Shown here in pieces: positions 15,697-60,901 of a DNA stretch of 63,119 nucleotides; position 1 is the first letter of the stretch; each line of letters opens with the position of its first letter. The notes beneath the pieces are model-generated. The model had not been told where the DNA came from and searched no databases. It saw nothing but the letters and a program-made list of their open reading frames with translations. This DNA is from a plasmid. The DNA is taken from the NCBI RefSeq assembly GCF_056746865.1, contig NZ_JBWKMP010000006.1, one strand, 5' to 3'. A program made the translations under genes and the position numbers.

Positions 15697-15869
15697 GACA
15701 AAGTCTCCATTTCTGGAATTTAAATCAAACGGAAAGGTTAAAAATTTATTTGCAGGCGATAAGAGCTAACCAGAGGAATTAGCCGTGTGATAAAAGGATT
15801 GTTGCAGATACGAAAGTCGTTAGAATAGCTGCGGGCGCTTGAGGCTGTATGCCGAAAGCGTTTTGTGGA

Positions 15870-15935
15870 CGGTATACAGCAGAAAGCCCCAGGCGATTTT
15901 TTTATCAATCAACCAAGGGCTCTACTGTAATGCCT
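15870..15935 (-). ncRNA. pndB: candidate PndB (Sok-like) antisense RNA
   Basis: - strand promoter-like TTGCCT-N17-TACTATAAT (15977-15943) directed across the pndC translation-initiation region; boundaries are approximate. Confidence 0.3.
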
Positions 15936-16133
15936 AGACAACATTATAGTAGCCCGATAACCGCCGTAAGGCAATGGAGGGGCTATGATGCCACAGCGAA
16001 CGTTTTTAATGATGTTAATCGTCGTCTGTGTGACGATTCTGTGTTTTGTCTGGATGGTGAGGGATTCGCTTTGCGGACTCCGGCTCCAGCAGGGAAACAC
16101 AGTGCTTGTGGCAACGTTAGCCTACGAAGTTAA
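15930..16133 (+). CDS. pndC: PndC (Mok-like overlapping reading frame)
   Basis: ATG 15930 frame MPRQHYSSPITAVRQWRGYDATANVF... overlaps pndA in a different frame, as in hok/mok. Confidence 0.5.
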   Translation: MPRQHYSSPITAVRQWRGYDATANVFNDVNRRLCDDSVFCLDGEGFALRTPAPAGKHSACGNVSLRS

Positions 16134-16463: not shown

Positions 16464-16614
16464 CGGATTTTCTCTCTGTATTTATGGGTAGTTATCGAAC
16501 TGAATGTGCCAGTTTTTTCAGGAGACGGCAAAGTTGAGATGATTGGTTCTGATTCAGAGCATGAGTTTCCCGGTGTGACGGGCATGTCGGGCGGATTTTG
16601 AGAAACAACAGATG

Positions 16615-16646
16615 TAAAAAAACCGACTGGTGAGGTCGGTTTTTTT
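16615..16646. terminator. bidirectional rho-independent terminator
   Basis: A7-ACCGAC-TGGTGAG-GTCGGT-T6. Confidence 0.55.
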
Positions 16647-16770
16647 ACTGTTCCGTTACAGAGTGGGTGGCTCTGACCGGAGGTCTATAACTGACGCTAA
16701 AAATGATAATTTGTTCTAACTGATTAATGTTCATGCCATAAGTTTACGGGAAAGGCTGACCACCTGATAT

Positions 16771-32627: not shown

Positions 32628-35600
32628 TCATCGGCCGGGGCTGTGGGAGAGATCCTGATGCAGAGTTTTTTCCTGCCTGTCCTCCGGCTTTTGGCTGTTG
32701 GACCACTGCTGCCATGACTGCTCGAAGCCCAGGTTCCGGTACAACGCATCAGGTTGTTTTTCCGGCGTGTAGACAGCAGCAAAAAGCGGTTCTTCCCGGG
32801 TTTTCAGATGAAACTGCATAAGCTCCGGTGCGGGGCGATTCGTGCTGTCAGCATCGTGGTTTACCGCTTCACCATAACCTGCAAAGCGTAAACCTTTGTC
32901 GGTCAGCGCATTGATAACCAGCTGACTGTTGTCGGCTGATGGGGTGGCCAGTGCCGGATACAATGTGCCGTTCAGCCGGACCACACCCTGCAGATGTTCA
33001 TCGGCACTCTGGACAAGTAGCAGGTTGAGTTCACGCGTATCCTTATCCACTGATCCCAGAACAGGTGTCAGCTTGTCAGGGGCTGCGCTGGTTATTTCTG
33101 TTACCTGATTTGCGTTCTGTGGCGCGGAGACCGGATGTCGGTCTTCACCGATAAACAGATGTGAGCCGACGTTTTCTGGCATACGTAACGCTTTCATCTC
33201 TTCGGGCCACCCCTGGCTGATTTGCGCAGCCACTTTCATAAAGGTTTCGACCGGAATCGCCTGAATACGCTGACCTTTATCCGGATTATCATGTGATACC
33301 GAGATCCCGTTGGTAACTGACTCCATGGACCACTTATTCCGGAAACGTGCTTTTTGCTCTCCCGGGAGGATGAATTGTTCGCGGTTCTGAAGTGTCAGTG
33401 TCACCACGTCACCTTTCTGATGGTTTTTGACCAGACTTTCCAGTTGTTCCCCCCAGTAGAGTTTGCTGCCACTGCGGTTTTTAAGCTCAACAAAGAAACT
33501 CTCTCCTTTGCCGGGTGCATATTCAGCACGACCAAAATTGTGCAGTACGGCAGTCACGCTCTCTCCCGGGCGAAGTTTTCCTGGTGGTTCTTCACCTTGT
33601 GCCGCATCTGCCGTTTTGCCAGGTTCAGCCGGTGATGATGCAGGGACGGTGCTGACGGTTGATGCTTCAGGGGCAACTGGGGACGCCGGGGATTGTGTGG
33701 CTTCTTTTTCCTGAACGGGGTCAGGGACAGCCGGTTGTTCAGGGGTATTCCGGTTAAGTTCCGGTGTTGGCTGATGGGTGACAACAGCATCCTTACCGAC
33801 AGCCATTTCCTTGCGTAATTTTTCGAGCTCCAGACGCTGATCAGGCAATTTCATGCGCACATTGATGTTGTGCTCGATAATCAACTGCATCGCTTTTTGC
33901 TTAAAGGCATCACTGCCCGTCAGCTCAATGACGCCACCATAAAAATTAGTGGCCACAGCAAGTGCGGCCAGAACACTGCGATCGTCATTGCTGGCACCGT
34001 TGACCATTTCCAGCCGGTTTACCCGGTCAATGAAGGCAGGTTTGCCATCCAGTTTGTACAGGACGGTTCTGTCTGCTCGTTTTTCCCCTTCAGTGATTTA
34101 ATGATTTCGTCCAGATTGAGCGATATCGGTGCATCAGGACGTTCCGGGGCGTAGACAATACTGTCAGGTGTCGGTGTGGTCGTCGTGGTTTCCGGTGAGG
34201 GCGTGGGATCACTGTTCTCATGTGCCTGTGAATCCGTTTTTTTACGCGTAAAAAAGCCACGCGCTTTGTCGAGAAACGATGAAGTATTATCAGAAGGTGA
34301 TGTGCTCTGAACAGGTTGCTGTGGATTGGGTTCATCCCGGACAGCCGGTTCTGCAGTATCTGTTGTGGCCTGAAGTTCTGACTCATCTGCCTGAACGTGG
34401 TCTGTGTCCGGTTGCGACGGCATATCACTGTTTTCCTGCAGATGCTCAGGATTTTCATTGTTCATCAGCTCCTGATATGCGCTGTAGTTTTCGTATTCTT
34501 CGGGGCCATCTGACTCAGGAAGGAACGGCTCTGGCTGAAGGGGAATGTCTTCAGTTACATGGCTGACCGCCTCTTCCCGGGGAGTATCCGGGGATATTCC
34601 GGTGCTTTGTTTGTCATCAGGCTCCGTCATCACGGTCATTTCCTCTTTGACTGCATCAGGGGAAGGTGATGGCTCGGCTGATTCATTCATGGTTTCAGAT
34701 GAGGGACTGTCTTCAGGGGATGCGGGGGCGGCAGCAGGGGCCGGTATTTCAGGTGAAGTGCCGGATTCCTGTTGTGACTCGTTTTTTTCCGGTTGTGACA
34801 GTTCGGCTTCAAATTCACGCCAGTCTTTATCTGTGGCCACCGAGACAACTTTTTCCGGAGGTTCCGCCGGATGAGCGGGTTCATCAGGGGCAGATGCCGT
34901 TGTACTTTCCGGGGACGCCGGTGATTCTGCAGGGGAGTCCTGAACTACAGAGCTTTCCGTTTGCGCCTGAACGTTATCAGCGTGCCGCTCATCTTTGCCG
35001 TTATTTTCAGTGGCGTGACTGGTAAATGACTGTGTTTCATCAGCAATGTTACTGCTGGAAGCAGCTGGTTGTTCCTGCTGCGTGGCGGACGGCAGAGAAG
35101 GTCCCTGGTCATGGCTGTGCCCTGTATCGGGTGATGTTTCAGGATATTCTGTCGGAGTCATGGTTTTTTCCTCAGTGTGGACCGGTGTAAAAACGAGGTT
35201 GCCGATCACCAGTGCCTCGCGGATTTCCGGGGTGTTACTGTTGGGGGTGGAAACCCCGATGTGTTCTAACTGGGCGTTGATGACATGCTGAAAAGCGGCC
35301 CGTCCCCGGCTTGCGTCCAGGTCATTGAAATCGGTCAGCCCCTGCGCTTTTTCGGCATCGGTGAACGCAGGAAAGATGACCGTTCCTCCTGTCAGTTCTG
35401 CGGCTTTTGTTGCACTGACGATACCTTTGTTAACCCGGATTGCATGATCGTTGTCGGCACAGAAGATAAAGGGGCTTTGCGTCCACTTTTGCCGGGCATT
35501 TTCGGCAACGGCAATCATGTTGCCTCCATCCACCGTCATCAGTACCGGAAGGCCCGTGGCTTCGTGCAGGGAGGCCGCAGTGGCATAGCCCTCGGCAAAC

Positions 35601-36394
35601 AGTACCGGCTGACCGTTGCGCGGTGTGCCCAGCGCAAACCAGTTACCGGTTTTCTCTGAATCTTTCAGGATGCGGGCATCCTTCCCCCCGGTGACCGGAA
35701 TACGCTGGTAAGAGCGTATCGCGCCGTTACGGTTACTGAAGGGAATAACCAGTTCATTTTTGTTGTTTACCCGCACCCCCGGTGCAGCCTGAATGCCTTT
35801 CCGGGTCAGGTATTCATGTGCTGTGGCCTGCGGCCATTTGTTGACATAGCGGCGGGCATACGCGGCCTGTCGGTTGTACTGTGCTTTCAGTTCCCGCTCC
35901 GCGTCCTCCCTGCGTTGCATTGAATGCGCTTTCAGGTGGAGTCTTGCGCGGGGATCTGTCTGTTCTCCGCCGGAGAAGGTCCAGGTGATCGGCGAATCAT
36001 CCGCGCTGCGATAATCCCTGTACCAGCCGGCAGGTCTGCCGTCCAGGAATCCGCGATATGCGCCACTTTTTTGTCCTTTTTTGTCATCGGCGGTCGGGAC
36101 ACGGTGGATTTTCCCGTCCATGACCGGCAGTTCTTTCAGAACCAGTCCGGCATTCTCCAGAACCTGGGCAAACTCGGTGACCGGATCACTGCCGTTCATG
36201 GAGACGTCCTGTGGCCGGGGCAGCCAGCGGTCCAGCCTGGACAGGTCCGCCCCCGGGCGGGCGAACCAGAGTTTGTGCTCCTTGTCCCAGATGACGGGCG
36301 TGTGCCCGTTCATCGGGGGATGTGCTTTTTTGAGATCTTCTATTTCATCTGCAGGCACGGCAAGCCAGGTGCGGTAGCGGGATACAGACGGCAT
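32628..36394 (-). pseudogene. sogL: Sog DNA primase (SogL/SogS), frameshifted between 34022 and 34098
   Basis: N-terminal primase part (ORF ending 34019, start ATG 36394 with AGGAGA) and 459-aa C-terminal ORF (32628-34007) are in different frames; a G4A5 run at 34081-34089 is the likely indel site; Asp/Glu/Pro-rich linker is typical of Sog. Confidence 0.85.
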
Positions 36395-39755: not shown

Positions 39756-39962
39756 AATAATTCCTGAGCAGTTAAATCAGAATGGGATATACCGGTGCTC
39801 CGGTACAGACAGGATGATGTTTGTTTCCGGCTATACTTGCGTTACCGGAAATAAATGCCAGTGTGGCCAGGTAAATAGCCTCATAGTTTACTGAAGGTGA
39901 TTATTCCTGATACTGGCTGGTTGATGTGTCGTCAGACATAAAACGAATATGAGCGTAATCTT

Positions 39963-40110
39963 TAACGCTCCGCGCCGAATCGATCCATGATGGATGACTC
40001 GACGATTTATGAATCGAACGTACCGGCGCTTGTCCCTGAAACAGTTCCCGGCCCTCGTCCGGATAACCTGCAATTCAGACAGGCACATGTGCCCGTACAC
40101 TCTTGTATCT
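39963..40110 (-). repeat. conserved leader module E1 (family of three) upstream of traH
   Basis: ~150 nt with conserved ends shared with 59013-59165 and 60075-60230 (5-prime TAACGCTCCGCGCCGAATCGATCCATGATGGA, 3-prime CCTCGTCCGGATAACCTGCAATTCAGACAGGCACATG) and a divergent middle. Confidence 0.5.
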
Positions 40111-40149
40111 TACTGAGTATATCAGAATTTATGTAAATTCAAATATCCT

Positions 40150-40734
40150 CTATGCCTCTTTGTTGTATTTTCCGTCAAGTATGAGCCGGGTACCATCGTA
40201 ATGCATGATCAGGGCATCAAGGTACGCCGGTTTGAATTTCTTGCCGAGCCTATCTCTGGCCAGAAATGATAAACAATGATTATGTGTCATTATTACTATG
40301 TTCCTTTTATGAGATTCTCTTGCGATTGATTCAAGCGTCTTATAAAGATCATTATTGCAGTCTGATAAACTGTCCATAACGACGGGTTCTTTACCGGAGA
40401 AGAATTTTGCAGTTTGTATGGTTCTTACCGCATTGCTGGAGTAAATATCATATTCACTGAAGATTGTTGCGAACTTAATACCTTCCTGCTGTGCTTTCTC
40501 TGTACCGGTAATAGTGATTCCGCTTTTATCCGAATAGCATGGCATATCTGAACGGTCGCAACGTTCTCCATGGCGGAAAAGGAAAATAACGGTGTTATCA
40601 GCATTAATTTCTTTTGCCTGTTCCAGGGTGATATCGGGAAGCGAGCTTTTTGCTTTTGTCACTGCCGCTACCAGGAAAACAGAAAATAAAAGAATGAATG
40701 CTGTTTTTGAATAAGAAGAACGTGGTTTCATCAT
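40150..40734 (-). CDS. traG: TraG-position protein with a histidine-phosphatase (PGAM-like) signature
   Basis: 194-aa secreted protein with an RHGE motif (VIFLFRHGERCDRSD); symbol assigned by size and synteny only. Confidence 0.5.
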   Translation of the reverse strand: MMKPRSSYSKTAFILLFSVFLVAAVTKAKSSLPDITLEQAKEINADNTVIFLFRHGERCDRSDMPCYSDKSGITITGTEKAQQEGIKFATIFSEYDIYSSNAVRTIQTAKFFSGKEPVVMDSLSDCNNDLYKTLESIARESHKRNIVIMTHNHCLSFLARDRLGKKFKPAYLDALIMHYDGTRLILDGKYNKEA

Positions 40735-43055: not shown

Positions 43056-44210
43056 TTACAGCGGGGTGCTGCCCGGGTTCAGAGGGCAAATCATAATGTA
43101 GTCAGGGTCGTTAACAGGTAACGCTCCGGGAGATGGGACACGTTCGCCTTTCTGTGCTGCAATGGCCAGTGTACGCAACAAAACCTCACTGGCGCGGTGA
43201 ACTGCTTCCTCTTTCGTTGTGGCAGTGACGTGAAGGTTATCAAAATCACCGATCTCAATACGATGCGCTTTCTGCCCATTTTCTTCATCGATGGTCGTGA
43301 TATGGGCAGGATACGGCACAAACCATGCTGCCACTTTTTGTGTCTGCCGCCGGCGGGCATCAAGCTTACTGACCAGTTGCCATGCACGAAGATGAGTATA
43401 CCGTTTCAGCATATTCATGGAACGATGTCCTGATATTGCAGCAATCTCCATTACATTCAGGCTACCCAGTTCGAAGAAGCGGCTTATTGCTTCATGCCGT
43501 AGATCGTGAAAATGCAGGTCCTCGATGCGAAGTCGTTGTGTGGCTATTCTCCAGGCATTTTTAAAGCCGGATGCGGTGTAATCAAAAACATTGCCGTGGA
43601 GATTAACGGGCATCATCTGAAGAAAGTTACGGGCACGTCTGGACAGAGGAACATCCCGTGAGTGACCGTTTTTGGTTTCAGGTAAATGAGCCACACCGTG
43701 GCGCAAATCAATGTGCTCCCAACGTAAGGCCAGTATTTCGCCCTGCCGCATGGCTGTCTCAAGGGCAAGATGGAAAATGACATACAACATCAGATTTTTT
43801 TCGCGGAAATAGCGAGAAAGGCGACGTTCTTCTGAAGACGTTAGCCGGCGATCTCGTCCCGAGGATACTTTCGGCTTGCGAACCAGTTCAACCGGGTTAG
43901 TACGACAGGTTCCCCATTCAACACGAGCAATATTGAACAGAGATGACAGAAGGGCGAGTTCAAGACGTACAGTATTACCTGTAATGGGTTTACCCGTTCG
44001 GGGGTTGATTTCTGCTAAACGAACGTCTCTGTATGTAGCAATATCAACGGTTGTTATTTCGTCCATATTCCGAAGGGCAATGGGATATCGCTTGATAACA
44101 TTGCTCCGGTAAAACTCCTGTTGATGCCCTTTCTTGTGAACAGAAACTGTTTTCAGGTACTTATCCAGTGCGCGTGACAGGGACATTTTACGGATGCGTG
44201 GAGACGGCAT
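43056..44210 (-). CDS. rci: Rci shufflon-specific tyrosine recombinase
   Basis: 384 aa from ATG 44210 ([19 protein letters not shown]...) with tyrosine-recombinase motifs ([14 protein letters not shown]); adjacent to the shufflon repeats. Confidence 0.9.
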
Positions 44211-57535: not shown

Positions 57536-58219
57536 TCAGTGTAATGTGATAGTCGTCTGCTCCTGTGTTGCACCCCAGACATCTTCTGGCAAGCTGGGCA
57601 GCCCGATAAATAGGGTGTGAAAGAGGGTTTCTCTGCGTTCGATCCCGAATTGATGTTCGTATCCTCTCACCACCTGAAATCCTTCGTCGGAGAATATTAA
57701 CTCTGCCGTTTCCAGAAGCTGCATAGTTTTGCGGTGTAGTGGAGTGATCAGCTGCAACGTAACTGGTGCCCTCATATCGCCTGTCGGTAGAAAACACTCT
57801 TCGGTGCGACTTAGTTGTAGCAGATGGCGTTTCCCGGAACAGGCCCGTTCAATGGATTCATTGAACACCCTCTCAGGCCATGGGCAGACATAAGTGCGCC
57901 AGCCTGCTTTCTGTAATTTACCCAGCGCAGCCCGAAAACGAAACAACGGACATTCCCCGACAGTGGCAGAGCTGAGAAAGAGCGTATTCAGCGTTCCGAT
58001 GATGGGAATATTGCGATCTTTTTCGGTCAATGCTTTTAACGCCATGATTTCGCCAGGGAGACTACTGAACTCAGGATGTCTGCTGGCACCAGAAAGCCAT
58101 TCAAGCAGGTAATGCCGTAATCCGGTTTCACTGGTTATATTGTGGTTTTCCTGTGCCGTTTTCAGGGCATTCAGTGCACACCAGAGCAACTGGCGCACGG
58201 GATGTTCTGTCGTGGTCAT
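57536..58219 (-). CDS. traC: TraC-position regulatory protein
   Basis: 227-aa ORF immediately downstream of traB; symbol by synteny. Confidence 0.6.
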   Translation of the reverse strand: MTTTEHPVRQLLWCALNALKTAQENHNITSETGLRHYLLEWLSGASRHPEFSSLPGEIMALKALTEKDRNIPIIGTLNTLFLSSATVGECPLFRFRAALGKLQKAGWRTYVCPWPERVFNESIERACSGKRHLLQLSRTEECFLPTGDMRAPVTLQLITPLHRKTMQLLETAELIFSDEGFQVVRGYEHQFGIERRETLFHTLFIGLPSLPEDVWGATQEQTTITLH

Positions 58220-58472: not shown

Positions 58473-59006
58473 CTATGGGATGTTTACAAGGCGCTCCATA
58501 AAGCCGTGATGTTCGGCATTTGATACCAGTTCCAGGAGCAGGGATATCCTCGACTCAGGCTGGAGAGTATTTTCCATTCTGAGGAGATACTGATATTGTG
58601 CTTTTGTCAGCCATATGCTGGAAGCCGCATTCAGCTCTTCCCTGGCTCCCGGATTTAGCACAGGGTCCGGGTAAATCTTCATTAATCCATCAACAATATC
58701 TTTATTGACGGGTTTTATTTCACCGCCAAACTTCACGAAATCAATGAAGGCGCTATGGCGACGTAATGCCGATACTGGTTGAATGTCAAAATTAGCCAGA
58801 ATAAAAAAGTACCCTGGAAAAATAGCGAATATTCTTTCACGGTAACAGCACCTGGAGTCTGCCCGTCTTATCTTTCTTGTTATTAATGGAGTCCATGGTA
58901 CGACGTTTTGCTCATTCAGCCATGAGAATAAAGATTCTCTGTTTTTGCCGGCTGTATTATATTGCGCAAGATACCAGTTCCGGTTATTCAGGTGTTCTAT
59001 ATTCAC
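58473..59006 (-). CDS. traB: TraB, NusG/RfaH-like transcription antiterminator paralogue
   Basis: ~177-aa ORF with NusG-N-like motifs (NWYLAQY..., FPGYFFILANFD, FVKFGG); no ATG, likely GTG 59006 (TTG 59027 is the alternative). Confidence 0.65.
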   Translation of the reverse strand: MNIEHLNNRNWYLAQYNTAGKNRESLFSWLNEQNVVPWTPLITRKIRRADSRCCYRERIFAIFPGYFFILANFDIQPVSALRRHSAFIDFVKFGGEIKPVNKDIVDGLMKIYPDPVLNPGAREELNAASSIWLTKAQYQYLLRMENTLQPESRISLLLELVSNAEHHGFMERLVNIP

Positions 59007-59012
59007 GAAGTT

Positions 59013-59165
59013 CAACGCTCCGCGCAAAACCGATCCATGATGGACGATTTTGCGATGTCAGGCGAATATGCTAAATCATATGTCTGAAGCAGTGTCCAGC
59101 CCATATCTGGATAAACTGCAGTTCTGACAGGCATATAACCAGCAGACTCTAGTACGTTCTGTATC
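59013..59165 (-). repeat. conserved leader module E2 upstream of and abutting the traB start
   Basis: Same conserved ends as E1 and E3; the - strand end GCGCGGAGCGTTGAA runs into the traB initiation region. Confidence 0.5.
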
Positions 59166-59407
59166 GGTGATTTGGCGAACTCACAGATAAAGAACGGCTA
59201 AGCACTAATATCAGCAATACAGTGGCACAGTATTGTGATACGCGAAATAAAACATCAGCACGTCAGTTCAGAGTAAGGTCGCCATATATCGGGCATGAGC
59301 CAGATACAAATAATTGGGACACCGTCTGAAGTGATTTGCTTTATTAAAGTAACTTGTGCTTGGTGTTTATGTTTATCAATTTGGGATCGCCTGTAAAGTG
59401 CAAAATG

Positions 59408-59440
59408 CAATTTCCATGAAAGTGTCCCCTTTAATGGGGA
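59408..59440. terminator. terminator-like hairpin downstream of traA
   Basis: GTGTCCCC-TTTAAT-GGGGACAC perfect hairpin. Confidence 0.4.
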
Positions 59441-59447
59441 CACCTGT

Positions 59448-59735: not shown

Positions 59736-60074
59736 AGCAAAGGTCTCCGATGACAACTAAAAACGCTATCACTGAGTTCCTACGCTCATTGGTGATAGCC
59801 CAGACGGGGGTAGGAATACCGGCGTCATCGGAAACCGGCCAGGCTAATGCCTGCCCCGCCTGAGCTACCATAGATGACGACAAGAAATACAAGTTCCTGT
59901 CTTTATGGTATGGCAAAAAACGACGCCAAATGAAGAAATTAACTTCTGCGCCGACGATGACTACGCGGGTTCCTACGCCCGATCACAGTTTTGCCTGTGA
60001 CCAGTAAAGGGTACTTAGTATAACGCACCGAGTCAACTAACAGCTTAAAAAACATACAAAAAAGCGTCAAAACT

Positions 60075-60230
60075 TAACGCTCCGCGCCGAAGCGATCCAG
60101 GCGTGATGCTTCTGCTTTGTGGCGTTCGAACATGCTGGTCCATATGCACGAAACGGTGTCTGACCCTCGTCCAGACAATCCGCAGTTCTGACGAACATAT
60201 GAACAAATATGCTCTTGTAGAGGCTGTTGT
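60075..60230 (-). repeat. conserved leader module E3 upstream of traA
   Basis: Same conserved ends as E1 and E2 (TAACGCTCCGCGCCGAAGCGATCCAGG...CCTCGTCCAGACAATCCGCAGTTCTGACGAACATATG). Confidence 0.5.
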
Positions 60231-60279
60231 TACACAATTGGCGGGTTGTGTAACAAATGGTTTTATCATCTAAGAATTA

Positions 60280-60560
60280 TTCTATTTACGATCGAATGAT
60301 CTACAAAATGATTTTTTAAAGGTTTTTTAGATCGTTTAATTGCATTAAAACAGAATATTATTCTGTTAGGTGGATCGGTTGTAAGATAAATGATCGTGAG
60401 TAGGACAAAAGTCGATCTTTTAATCCAAAAGAAAGATCTAAAGCAGAAAAATCTGCTTTTAAAAATAGATTTTATTTTTTTGACGCAGGTCAAGATTAAC
60501 TTATTAGAGGTATTAGTGAGGAGGCACTGGAAGAGAAGAGATCGTTGTAATGCTTTTCAA
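60280..60560. promoter_or_regulatory. AT-rich GATC-dense intergenic region
   Basis: Eight GATC sites in ~270 bp, several palindromic (AGATCTAAAGCAGAAAAATCTGCTTT); no credible ORF. Confidence 0.35.
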
Positions 60561-60721: not shown

Positions 60722-60797
60722 CCATAAAAGGAAAACCCCCACTATCTTTCTTACGAACTTGGCGGAACGACGAAAGATAGTGGGGGCCTCACAGAAT
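60722..60797 (-). ncRNA. inc: Inc antisense RNA (copy-number control of repZ)
   Basis: Perfect 15-bp stem (60736-60750 / 60772-60786) with loop containing TTGGCG (60759-60764); - strand promoter TTGAAT-N17-TATACT (60832-60806) and T-rich tail after the stem. Confidence 0.55.
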
Positions 60798-60811
60798 ACG
60801 GGTAAAGTATA

Positions 60812-60901
60812 ATGAAACCGTACCAGAGATTCAACCCTGTGCAGTGTATAAATACACGGCACAATCGCTCCGCCATAAGCGACAGCTTGTGGCAGGTCTG
60901 A
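60812..60901 (+). CDS. repY: RepY leader peptide
   Basis: 29-codon ORF MKPYQRFNPVQCINTRHNRSAISDSLWQV ending at TGA 60899-60901, overlapping the repZ start. Confidence 0.65.
   Translation: MKPYQRFNPVQCINTRHNRSAISDSLWQV

Follow-up and report, generated by a model that had tools for sequence, protein, structure and literature searches.

Three paralogous modules of an IncI1 plasmid, best explained as copies of a cis-acting structured traB leader element

Why would a conjugative plasmid carry three related stretches of about 150 nt before different groups of its transfer genes, and what could such stretches do? The DNA analysed here, which we call the window (63,119 nt, plasmid contig NZ_JBWKMP010000006.1 of assembly GCF_056746865.1), is an IncI1 plasmid of the ColIb-P9/R64 type. 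A sequence-only reading had described its blocks 39963-40110, 59013-59165 and 60075-60230 as a family with conserved ends, placed before the traH, traB and traA units, and all three were found at these coordinates. The 25-nt pattern TAACGCTCCGCGCCGAANCGATCCA, taken from the common end and searched with up to 3 mismatches, matched at exactly 39963, 59013 and 60075 and nowhere in 100 shuffles, and an nhmmer profile of the three blocks recovered each copy (E ~1e-50). Block 1 is 100% identical to ColIb-P9 (NC_002122), as is the traA-traB segment to many IncI1 records. Since the transfer genes from traB (58473-59006) down to ~11115 all lie on the minus strand, the modules are to be read as reverse complements. 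The homologous units proved longer than the blocks as first read:

39945-40142, minus strand: module b1, covariance model match of 154.5 bits, MFE z = -2.4
58995-59195, minus strand: module b2, covariance model match of 137 bits, MFE -62.8 kcal/mol, z = -3.9
60056-60256, minus strand: module b3, covariance model match of 157 bits, MFE -62.2 kcal/mol, z = -3.1

Over the window, the covariance model gave these three modules at 137-157 bits and its next match at 11.8 bits. With the filters off it detected no fourth or degenerate copy in the window, whether before the pil genes, traE or other operons; co-regulation of the tra/pil regulon by the modules, as the sequence-only reading had supposed, is nonetheless plausible. 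The 12-mer motif of the module end, with up to 2 mismatches, matches 7 times in the window against 4.2 expected; one of these matches, at 43120 inside rci, was considered as an extra copy and ruled out, as it has neither the hairpin nor the GGATC context.

In a three-way alignment the homology runs along the whole module, beyond the conserved ends, with a pairwise identity of 66-69% between b1, b2 and b3 over the whole core. The IncI1 copies are 59-62% identical to the IncK ortholog, which points to old duplications within the IncI1 lineage. The middle of the blocks, first read as non-conserved, is indeed divergent in sequence; it is not unconstrained, since this identity and the same base-pairing scheme are kept throughout. 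Even the CATATG spotted in the first reading is one arm of a helix (CAURUG/CAYAUG, in domain I). We therefore regard the modules as best explained by three paralogous copies of a cis-acting structured leader element on the minus strand, for which we use the name traB leader module.

For the analysis of the fold, orthologs were gathered from PLSDB and from GTDB genomes, with TraB protein and DNA as queries, giving a MAFFT alignment of 17 distinct sequences from about 11 lineages and, after refitting with the covariance model, an alignment of 21 distinct sequences. The modules share a conserved fold made up of domain I, a linker, a hairpin P3 and an optional upstream hairpin P0. Domain I is an irregular hairpin of 87 nt with a 23-pair stem, closed by AAGAGYRY/RYRUUCG and with a lineage-variable apex. 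On its 3' side follows a C/A-rich linker and then P3, whose 3' arm contains an invariant GGAUC, and the module ends with the invariant GCGCGGAGCGUU, which can form a CGC-GGA-GCG mini-hairpin, with UU directly after the CGC-GGA-GCG. P0 is predicted upstream in all lineages but b1, its stems being wholly different while a YCCGCC-type loop is kept. The parts of the three copies are as follows:

59156-59195, minus strand: P0 hairpin of b2, loop UCGCCAA at 59172-59178
59147-59153, minus strand: ACUAGAG box of b2
59064-59149, minus strand: domain I, the long hairpin of b2
59023-59054, minus strand: P3 hairpin of b2
59014-59025, minus strand: invariant GCGCGGAGCGTT of b2
60227-60256, minus strand: P0 hairpin of b3, 11-bp stem, loop CCGCCAA at 60238-60244
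60212-60218, minus strand: ACAAGAG box of b3
60128-60214, minus strand: domain I of b3
60086-60115, minus strand: P3 of b3
60076-60087, minus strand: GCGCGGAGCGTT of b3
~60052-60083, minus strand: terminator-like hairpin and T run after the b3 motif, 10-pair stem, TTTTTTG
40100-40106, minus strand: ACAAGAG box of b1
40016-40102, minus strand: domain I of b1
39973-40004, minus strand: P3 of b1
39964-39975, minus strand: GCGCGGAGCGTT of b1
39951-39970, minus strand: terminator-like hairpin of b1, GAGCGTTAAAGATTACGCTC, 6-bp stem, interrupted T run

Copy b2 is of the ancestral type, with its 3' end at the traB start codon. Copy b1 is truncated at its 5' end, lacks P0, and lies 25 nt past the stop of a PmrG-like gene and 209 nt ahead of the traH ATG (39755). 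In both b3 and b1 the motif overlaps the terminator-like hairpin and forms its 5' arm. Judged as intrinsic terminators (a G+C-rich hairpin and a U run), these hairpins are weak or have an interrupted T run, the b3 stem having only 3 G-C among its 10 pairs, and b2 has none. The gene beside b1 (40150-40734, minus strand, between traF and b1) encodes a PmrG/Ais-like LPS core heptose(II)-phosphate phosphatase (NCBIfam PRK15416, 295 bits) and is missing from the IncK2/Z plasmid L002, where the traF-traH gap is 104 nt.

Several measures support the fold. Independent MFE folds of 11 lineage representatives gave the same architecture, and their pairs, when mapped to the alignment, fell in the same columns in 8-10 of the 11 lineages. 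In the MAFFT alignment 83.6% of the cells are paired in the proposed structure against 30-44% when the partners are slid, 20 pairs are changed on both sides against 7-15, and the covariation score is 0.375 against at most 0.137; none of 500 shuffles attained the observed values of pairing and covariation. These figures are to be read with the caveat that the structure was derived from the same sequences on which it was scored, the double changes and the slid-partner controls being the sturdier measures. The refitted alignment of 21 sequences gave the same pairing picture. Moreover, G.U pairs outnumber A.C combinations by 75 to 19, pointing to the tra-sense strand as the one that folds. If only the three paralogs are compared, 5 pairs show compensatory changes and 14 are invariant, with the b1 fold the least well defined of the three (z = -2.4), and orthologs only 44-62% identical to the IncI1 copies still keep the fold. 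The sequence-only reading had suggested a structured RNA or leader element as one option and a covariance analysis as a means of checking it: the compensatory changes found across about 11 plasmid lineages, the G.U excess and the MFE z-scores bear the suggestion out. Compensatory changes and a strand-specific G.U excess are the generic marks of a structured cis-regulatory RNA, here with a structure drawn from the sequences themselves. By inspection, no complementarity consistent across lineages was seen for a pseudoknot of the P0-loop CCGCC with the motif or with the domain I loop.

The position of the element is as constant as its fold. In every I-complex-like plasmid examined (IncI1, IncK2/Z, and plasmids of S. 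diarizonae, Citrobacter, Enterobacter, Klebsiella and the Plautia stali symbiont) one module ends 1-8 nt before the traB start, and every plasmid found with a TraB homologue of 47-65% identity has one module before traB. The spacing from GGAG to the traB start is 11-12 nt in most lineages; in the Citrobacter/Enterobacter lineage GAAG replaces GGAG (GCGCGAAGCGTT). Of the PLSDB records, 1409 matched b1, 1482 the traA-traB region and 1997 the b2 copy together with the 5' end of traB. The triple-copy state is confined to IncI1/I-gamma. IncK has neither the PmrG-like gene nor b1. In IncK and S. diarizonae plasmids the flank of the single traB module is homologous to the upstream flank of b3, and this homology supports a duplication around an insertion. 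When GTDB genomes were scanned with TraB, only 7 loci emerged, all in Enterobacteriaceae. In a metagenome scan with GGATC-N6-7-CGCGRAGCGTT only 4 of 80 loci among the matches listed were real modules, so that the motif alone is not diagnostic. Thus, the family appears narrow and confined to enterobacterial I-complex-like plasmids. As regards annotation, the RefSeq/PGAP TraB of IncK/B/O/Z plasmids has 213 aa and begins at an ATG inside the module (L002 12606-13247; also L013, L014 and L015). The conserved TraB protein in L002 begins ~45 codons later (TTG, 12741), and the 213-aa annotation is probably a mis-start.

A promoter shared by the three modules had also been proposed, and this part of the first reading did not hold. 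No sigma-70-like -35/-10 site was detected within b1, b2 or b3. Published traB::lacZ fusions with all of b2 were inactive without a distal 54-bp segment, which was needed for the response to TraA as well (PMC5801416). We mapped the primers oYo454, oYo461, oYo456 and oYo455 of Poidevin et al. (PMC5801416 supplement) onto the window: the fusions end at 59000 and start at 59346, 59393 or 59447, and the two inactive ones (starts 59346 and 59393) comprise the whole of b2 and up to 215 bp upstream. All the published traB::lacZ constructs, active or not, thus include b2. By the same mapping the 54-bp segment lies more than 200 nt upstream of b2:

59394-59447, minus strand: published '54 bp' segment

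Copy b2 is therefore a transcribed 5' UTR without a promoter of its own, a conclusion that holds at least in a plasmid-free host. The 54-bp segment itself contains a hairpin with an 8-bp stem, GTGTCCCC-ATTAAA-GGGGACAC, directly after the traA stop codon, and looks more like a terminator or operator than a classical promoter.

Upstream of b3, a promoter-like site could drive transcription into the module. It was seen by eye in the aligned conserved flank and is a prediction only, falling under the threshold of the promoter scan used:

60279-60306, minus strand: promoter-like TTGTAG-16 nt-TAGAAT

At the place of its -10, IncK has TAATAT and the S. diarizonae plasmid TAGTAT. The surrounding region (60260-60560, minus strand; L002 12300-12550) is conserved and GATC-rich, with the palindrome ACAGAATATTATTCTGT at 60341-60357. 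Two GATC lie in the spacer of the promoter-like site and an invariant GATC in the module as well; a Dam methylation-sensitive control of the b3 region or of the module is conceivable.

The description of the third block as standing before the traA unit needs qualification. Copy b3 does lie upstream of the Hft region, where insertions change the transfer of pESBL (Yamaichi et al., PMC4288162), and is just outside this interval; the active traA::lacZ fragment (60027 to 59729), on the other side, excludes b3.

59758-60027, minus strand: Hft region between b3 and traA (pESBL 35394-35663, PMC4288162; offset +24364)

This 'superspreader' region coincides with an antisense cassette like the immI of phage P1. 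Rfam gave a C4 match at 59788-59875 (77.5 bits, above gathering), a c4-a1b1 target-like match at 59962-60014 (32.9 bits, below gathering) and an isrK-like match at 59916-60001. The ORFs hp1 and traA come after the C4 cassette, and in phage P1 it is icd and ant that come after c4. A C4-like cassette could account for the derepression of traA by insertions at both ends of Hft; no link between Hft and C4 was found in the searchable papers. A 43-aa ORF (59939-60070, minus strand, TTG start at 60070) with a very basic C-terminus overlaps the upstream end of Hft and starts 9 nt after the GGAG of b3; the distance from the b2 GGAG to the GTG of traB is 11 nt. Other Rfam matches above gathering in the window are the sok antitoxin RNA (15833-15990, plus strand), the AgrB antisense RNA (16614-16694, minus strand) and the repZ regulatory pseudoknot (60728-60876, plus strand).

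What, then, might the element do? The gene that it precedes everywhere offers a clue:

58473-59006, minus strand: traB, GTG start at 59006, annotated TraB / NusG family in plasmid records

Sequence and model comparisons agree that TraB is an RfaH-type NusG paralog. It matches NCBIfam RfaH over its full length (42 bits), and its best sequence match in PDB is 9ik0, the PrfaH of IncX3. The best structure matches of its AF2 model are RfaH bound to ops and autoinhibited RfaH; the NGN domain is confidently modelled, and the helical C-terminal domain, of low confidence (pLDDT 40-70), superposes on autoinhibited RfaH. In TraB the RfaH contact residues K10, Q13 and H20 are replaced by N, G and W, so that recognition, if there is any, must take another form. 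TraC, encoded next to traB (57536-58219, minus strand), has no Pfam or NCBIfam match. It is an essential co-regulator. Both pil transcription and conjugation require TraB (PMC5013300).

Our main reading is that the module is an ops-like pause and loading site for TraB, and that the extra copies of IncI1 followed cassette insertions. It is drawn from sequence comparison and analogy, and we put its probability at about 47%. In this mechanism the 3' end of the module would be an ops-like element, equivalent to the ops core GCGGTAGCGT without its T6. The motif GCGCGGAGCGTT keeps the G at -10 and the U at -1 of the consensus pause. With its end 10-13 nt ahead of the UU, P3 is spaced as a pause-stabilising hairpin is, and this is the role proposed for it: as a hairpin of the nascent RNA it would stabilise the pause. 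TraB would be the trans-acting partner loading at the module, and the polymerase so modified would pass terminators and Rho sites throughout the co-oriented traC-pil-tra-trb array of ~48 kb. The module of IncI1 would have been duplicated upon the insertion of foreign cassettes, c4-hp1-traA having entered between b3 and b2, and the PmrG-like gene ahead of b1, so that polymerases from new internal promoters would still pass a loading site. A motif within a terminator-like hairpin is a classic arrangement for regulated read-through, and in b3 and b1, where the motif is the 5' arm, the hairpin may act as a TraB-dependent attenuator. When treated as ssDNA, the module end, ops and the PrfaH site are all predicted to fold into small hairpins with G+C stems and loops that begin with GG; the stem of the module end is CGC/GCG and its loop GGA, and in the Citrobacter-group module end the loop begins with GA.

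How far does the likeness to known systems go? RfaH is recruited to polymerase paused at ops (GGCGGTAGCGTG) via a mini-hairpin of the non-template strand. Like the ops/JUMPStart of E. coli and Salmonella (F tra, waa, hly, cps), the module end is short, G+C-rich and located in the transcribed leader of very long operons; its core GCGG(T)AGCGT is nearly identical, a non-template mini-hairpin is predicted, G at -10 and a pyrimidine at -1 are present, and the candidate partner is an RfaH homologue. As for position, b2 does lie in a leader, between 59394-59447 and traB, the genes co-oriented with it running from 59006 down to ~11115; for b1 and b3 a leader position is only inferred. The differences are equally clear. 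The motif GCGCGGAGCGTT departs from the 12-nt ops consensus of the non-template strand, GGCGGTAGnnTG: 9 positions match if a 1-nt deletion of T6 is allowed and 7 of 12 without a gap, with G12 replaced. TraB lacks the contact residues of RfaH, and the motif is part of a conserved RNA fold of ~150-200 nt, 1-8 nt from the regulator's own start codon. Neither JUMPstart nor any other Rfam 15 family matched any module, in the gathering scan or at E up to 10.

A second parallel is the PrfaH/ActX of IncX plasmids, in which the recruitment site is in the 5' UTR of the paralog's own gene, within ~45 nt of the start, as the module is. To our knowledge, the IncX3 site, published in 2025, is the only one mapped so far for a plasmid paralog. 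Located at -42 to -25 of the PrfaH gene itself, the site forms an ops-like mini-hairpin of the non-template strand (PMC11880322), and the IncX3 leader record confirms its sequence as TCGGGGTCATCCGAGTCG. Both hairpins are small, of the non-template strand and with a loop that starts with GG; both proteins are essential for conjugation, and 9ik0 is the closest solved relative of TraB. In contrast, TCGGGGTCATCCGAGTCG is unrelated in sequence to the module motif, 62 nt of UTR suffice in IncX3, where no large structured domain or multiple copies are described (PMC11880322), and the module covariance model found no match on the IncX3 PrfaH leader (best 8.6 bits, on the wrong strand).

The hairpin in LoaP leaders and the lambda nut and HK022 put sites are likewise structured leader RNAs upstream of terminators in long operons and needed for antitermination; they have no sequence or structural similarity to the module, in which the ligand may as well be the DNA as the RNA. 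The his-type pause has, as the module does, a stable hairpin ending 10-13 nt upstream of G-10 ... U-1; in the module the +1 base is not conserved and the pause is putative. Taken together, these comparisons lead us to infer that the element works like ops or the PrfaH site and is a member of neither family. The only use of the motif string in the searchable literature is as a cloning primer, although an early report of the repeats is possible (Kim et al. 1993, R64 traABCD), and the element is described in no Rfam family or searchable paper.

Several findings weigh against TraB loading. The likeness to ops was noticed post hoc, and the missing T6 is a key contact of RfaH in ops. An ops-type model needs ~12-18 nt and leaves ~150 further conserved, structured nucleotides over. 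The invariant GGAG could be a weak Shine-Dalgarno of traB, and the RNA often pairs the GGAG segment with the linker, which suggests control at the RNA level. In addition, b3 is outside both the transfer-altering Hft interval and the active traA::lacZ fragment, its promoter is a prediction only, the b1 fold is the weakest, and the C-terminal domain of the AF2 model is of low confidence.

The main rival is thus regulation of traB at the RNA level, and it is a serious one, even if we consider it doubtful as the explanation of the family. Here it would be the folded leader that governs the translation of traB or the stability of its mRNA, either by masking and presenting the GGAG region (as a thermosensor-like, protein-responsive or sRNA-responsive switch) or as a platform for Hfq or another RNA-binding protein; the extra copies would serve as decoys or control small ORFs downstream. 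Predicted pairing of GGAGCGUU with the linker 3' of domain I is found in several lineages in differing registers (AACGC/GCGUU in b3, CCUCC/GGAG in S. diarizonae, UGAAC/GUUCA in the Citrobacter group), and in b2 the predicted partner of this segment is the traB start region. The motif is always near the traB start, and the TTG of the 43-aa ORF follows b3 at a similar spacing (9 vs 11 nt). Effects of hfq on traA and traBC have been mentioned as unpublished (PMC5801416), and with pESI, pil expression and transfer are switched on at 37-41 C but shut off at 27 C (PMC5013300). Nonetheless, b1 and b3 keep the whole fold, and b1 has no plausible start codon adjoining it. The distance of mostly 11-12 nt from GGAG to the start is too long for an efficient Shine-Dalgarno, the 12 invariant nucleotides exceed what a Shine-Dalgarno requires, and the GAAG of Citrobacter/Enterobacter removes both this reading and that of a CsrA-type GGA site. 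A CsrA-type site or a Shine-Dalgarno as the sole explanation is weakened accordingly, by the GAA variant and the long spacing. On an antisense RNA or a FinO/FopA target, nothing was found for these sites in the searchable RIP-seq papers.

In an unlikely composite reading, the folded leader RNA (P0, domain I and P3) would itself be required for RfaH-like antitermination alongside the ops-like DNA motif, the RNA serving as a ligand of TraB/TraC or acting put-like on RNA polymerase, and the three IncI1 copies would form a feed-forward circuit that sets the rate of conjugation for I-complex resistance plasmids.

It is rather improbable that b3, and perhaps b1, is a separate sRNA gene, of ~210 nt from the predicted promoter at 60279-60306 to the hairpin at ~60052-60083, whose product acts in trans, for instance by titrating TraB or a factor of the b2 leader. 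The conserved order of a promoter-like site, a structured RNA and a hairpin with a T run would fit such a gene, and in pESBL a signal was obtained from RT-qPCR amplicons lying between Hft and repZ (PMC4288162). Yet in all other lineages the module is a 5' UTR fused to traB, without a terminator; b1 has no promoter-like site, the stem of the b3 terminator is weak (10 pairs, 3 G-C), and no sRNA at the b3 locus was found in the searchable papers.

There is very little to recommend the modules as duplicated promoter or operator DNA recognised by TraA, TraC or RNA polymerase. They do lie upstream of genes, their ACAAGAG and GGATC boxes are conserved, and TraA is a LuxR/sigma region-4-type helix-turn-helix protein; against this, the absence of an internal -35/-10, the inactive b2 fusions and the failure of TraA to activate them without the distal 54 bp are joined by the role of the ACAAGAG box as one arm of a covarying helix and by the G.U bias, which indicates that the functional form is single-stranded. 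Promoters of the Frpo type have a long hairpin with -35/-10 in the stem and are found in the leading region ahead of ssb/psiB/ardA. A promoter of this kind working on ssDNA was considered and rejected, the domain I stem having no hexamer pair and the modules lying in tra regions, which enter the recipient last.

The sequence-only reading rightly argued against protein coding, as the frames differ between copies, indel lengths are not divisible by three and, in IncI1, the traB frame closes 21 nt before the GTG. Small protein genes on either strand (40 aa in b2; 49 aa on the plus strand in b1) were rejected, their frames and ends disagreeing between copies. Least credible of all is that the modules are functionless repeat or mobile-element remnants or wrongly called coding sequence, say an N-terminal extension of TraB, for although the 213-aa IncK/Z TraB of PGAP begins in the module and the copies flank inserted cassettes, paralogs diverged by 31-34% keep the fold with compensatory changes, orthologs at 44-62% identity keep it too, the frames are inconsistent and closed before traB in IncI1, and terminal repeats or a transposase context are lacking.

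Among the major carriers of ESBL and AmpC genes are IncI1 and other I-complex plasmids, which cannot be transferred without TraB. In reviews, the recruitment of plasmid-borne NusG paralogs has been called unresolved (PMC7593976); the module is a concrete, mutable candidate for the site at which TraB would be recruited. With it come an invariant motif of 12 nt, defined helices and three natural copies in differing contexts. Moreover, it accounts for the long 5' UTR of traB, places the 'superspreader' Hft region between two copies and adds a well-supported new structured RNA family to plasmid biology. If the ops-like reading is true, the traB leader module may be a missing control site for the spread of these plasmids.
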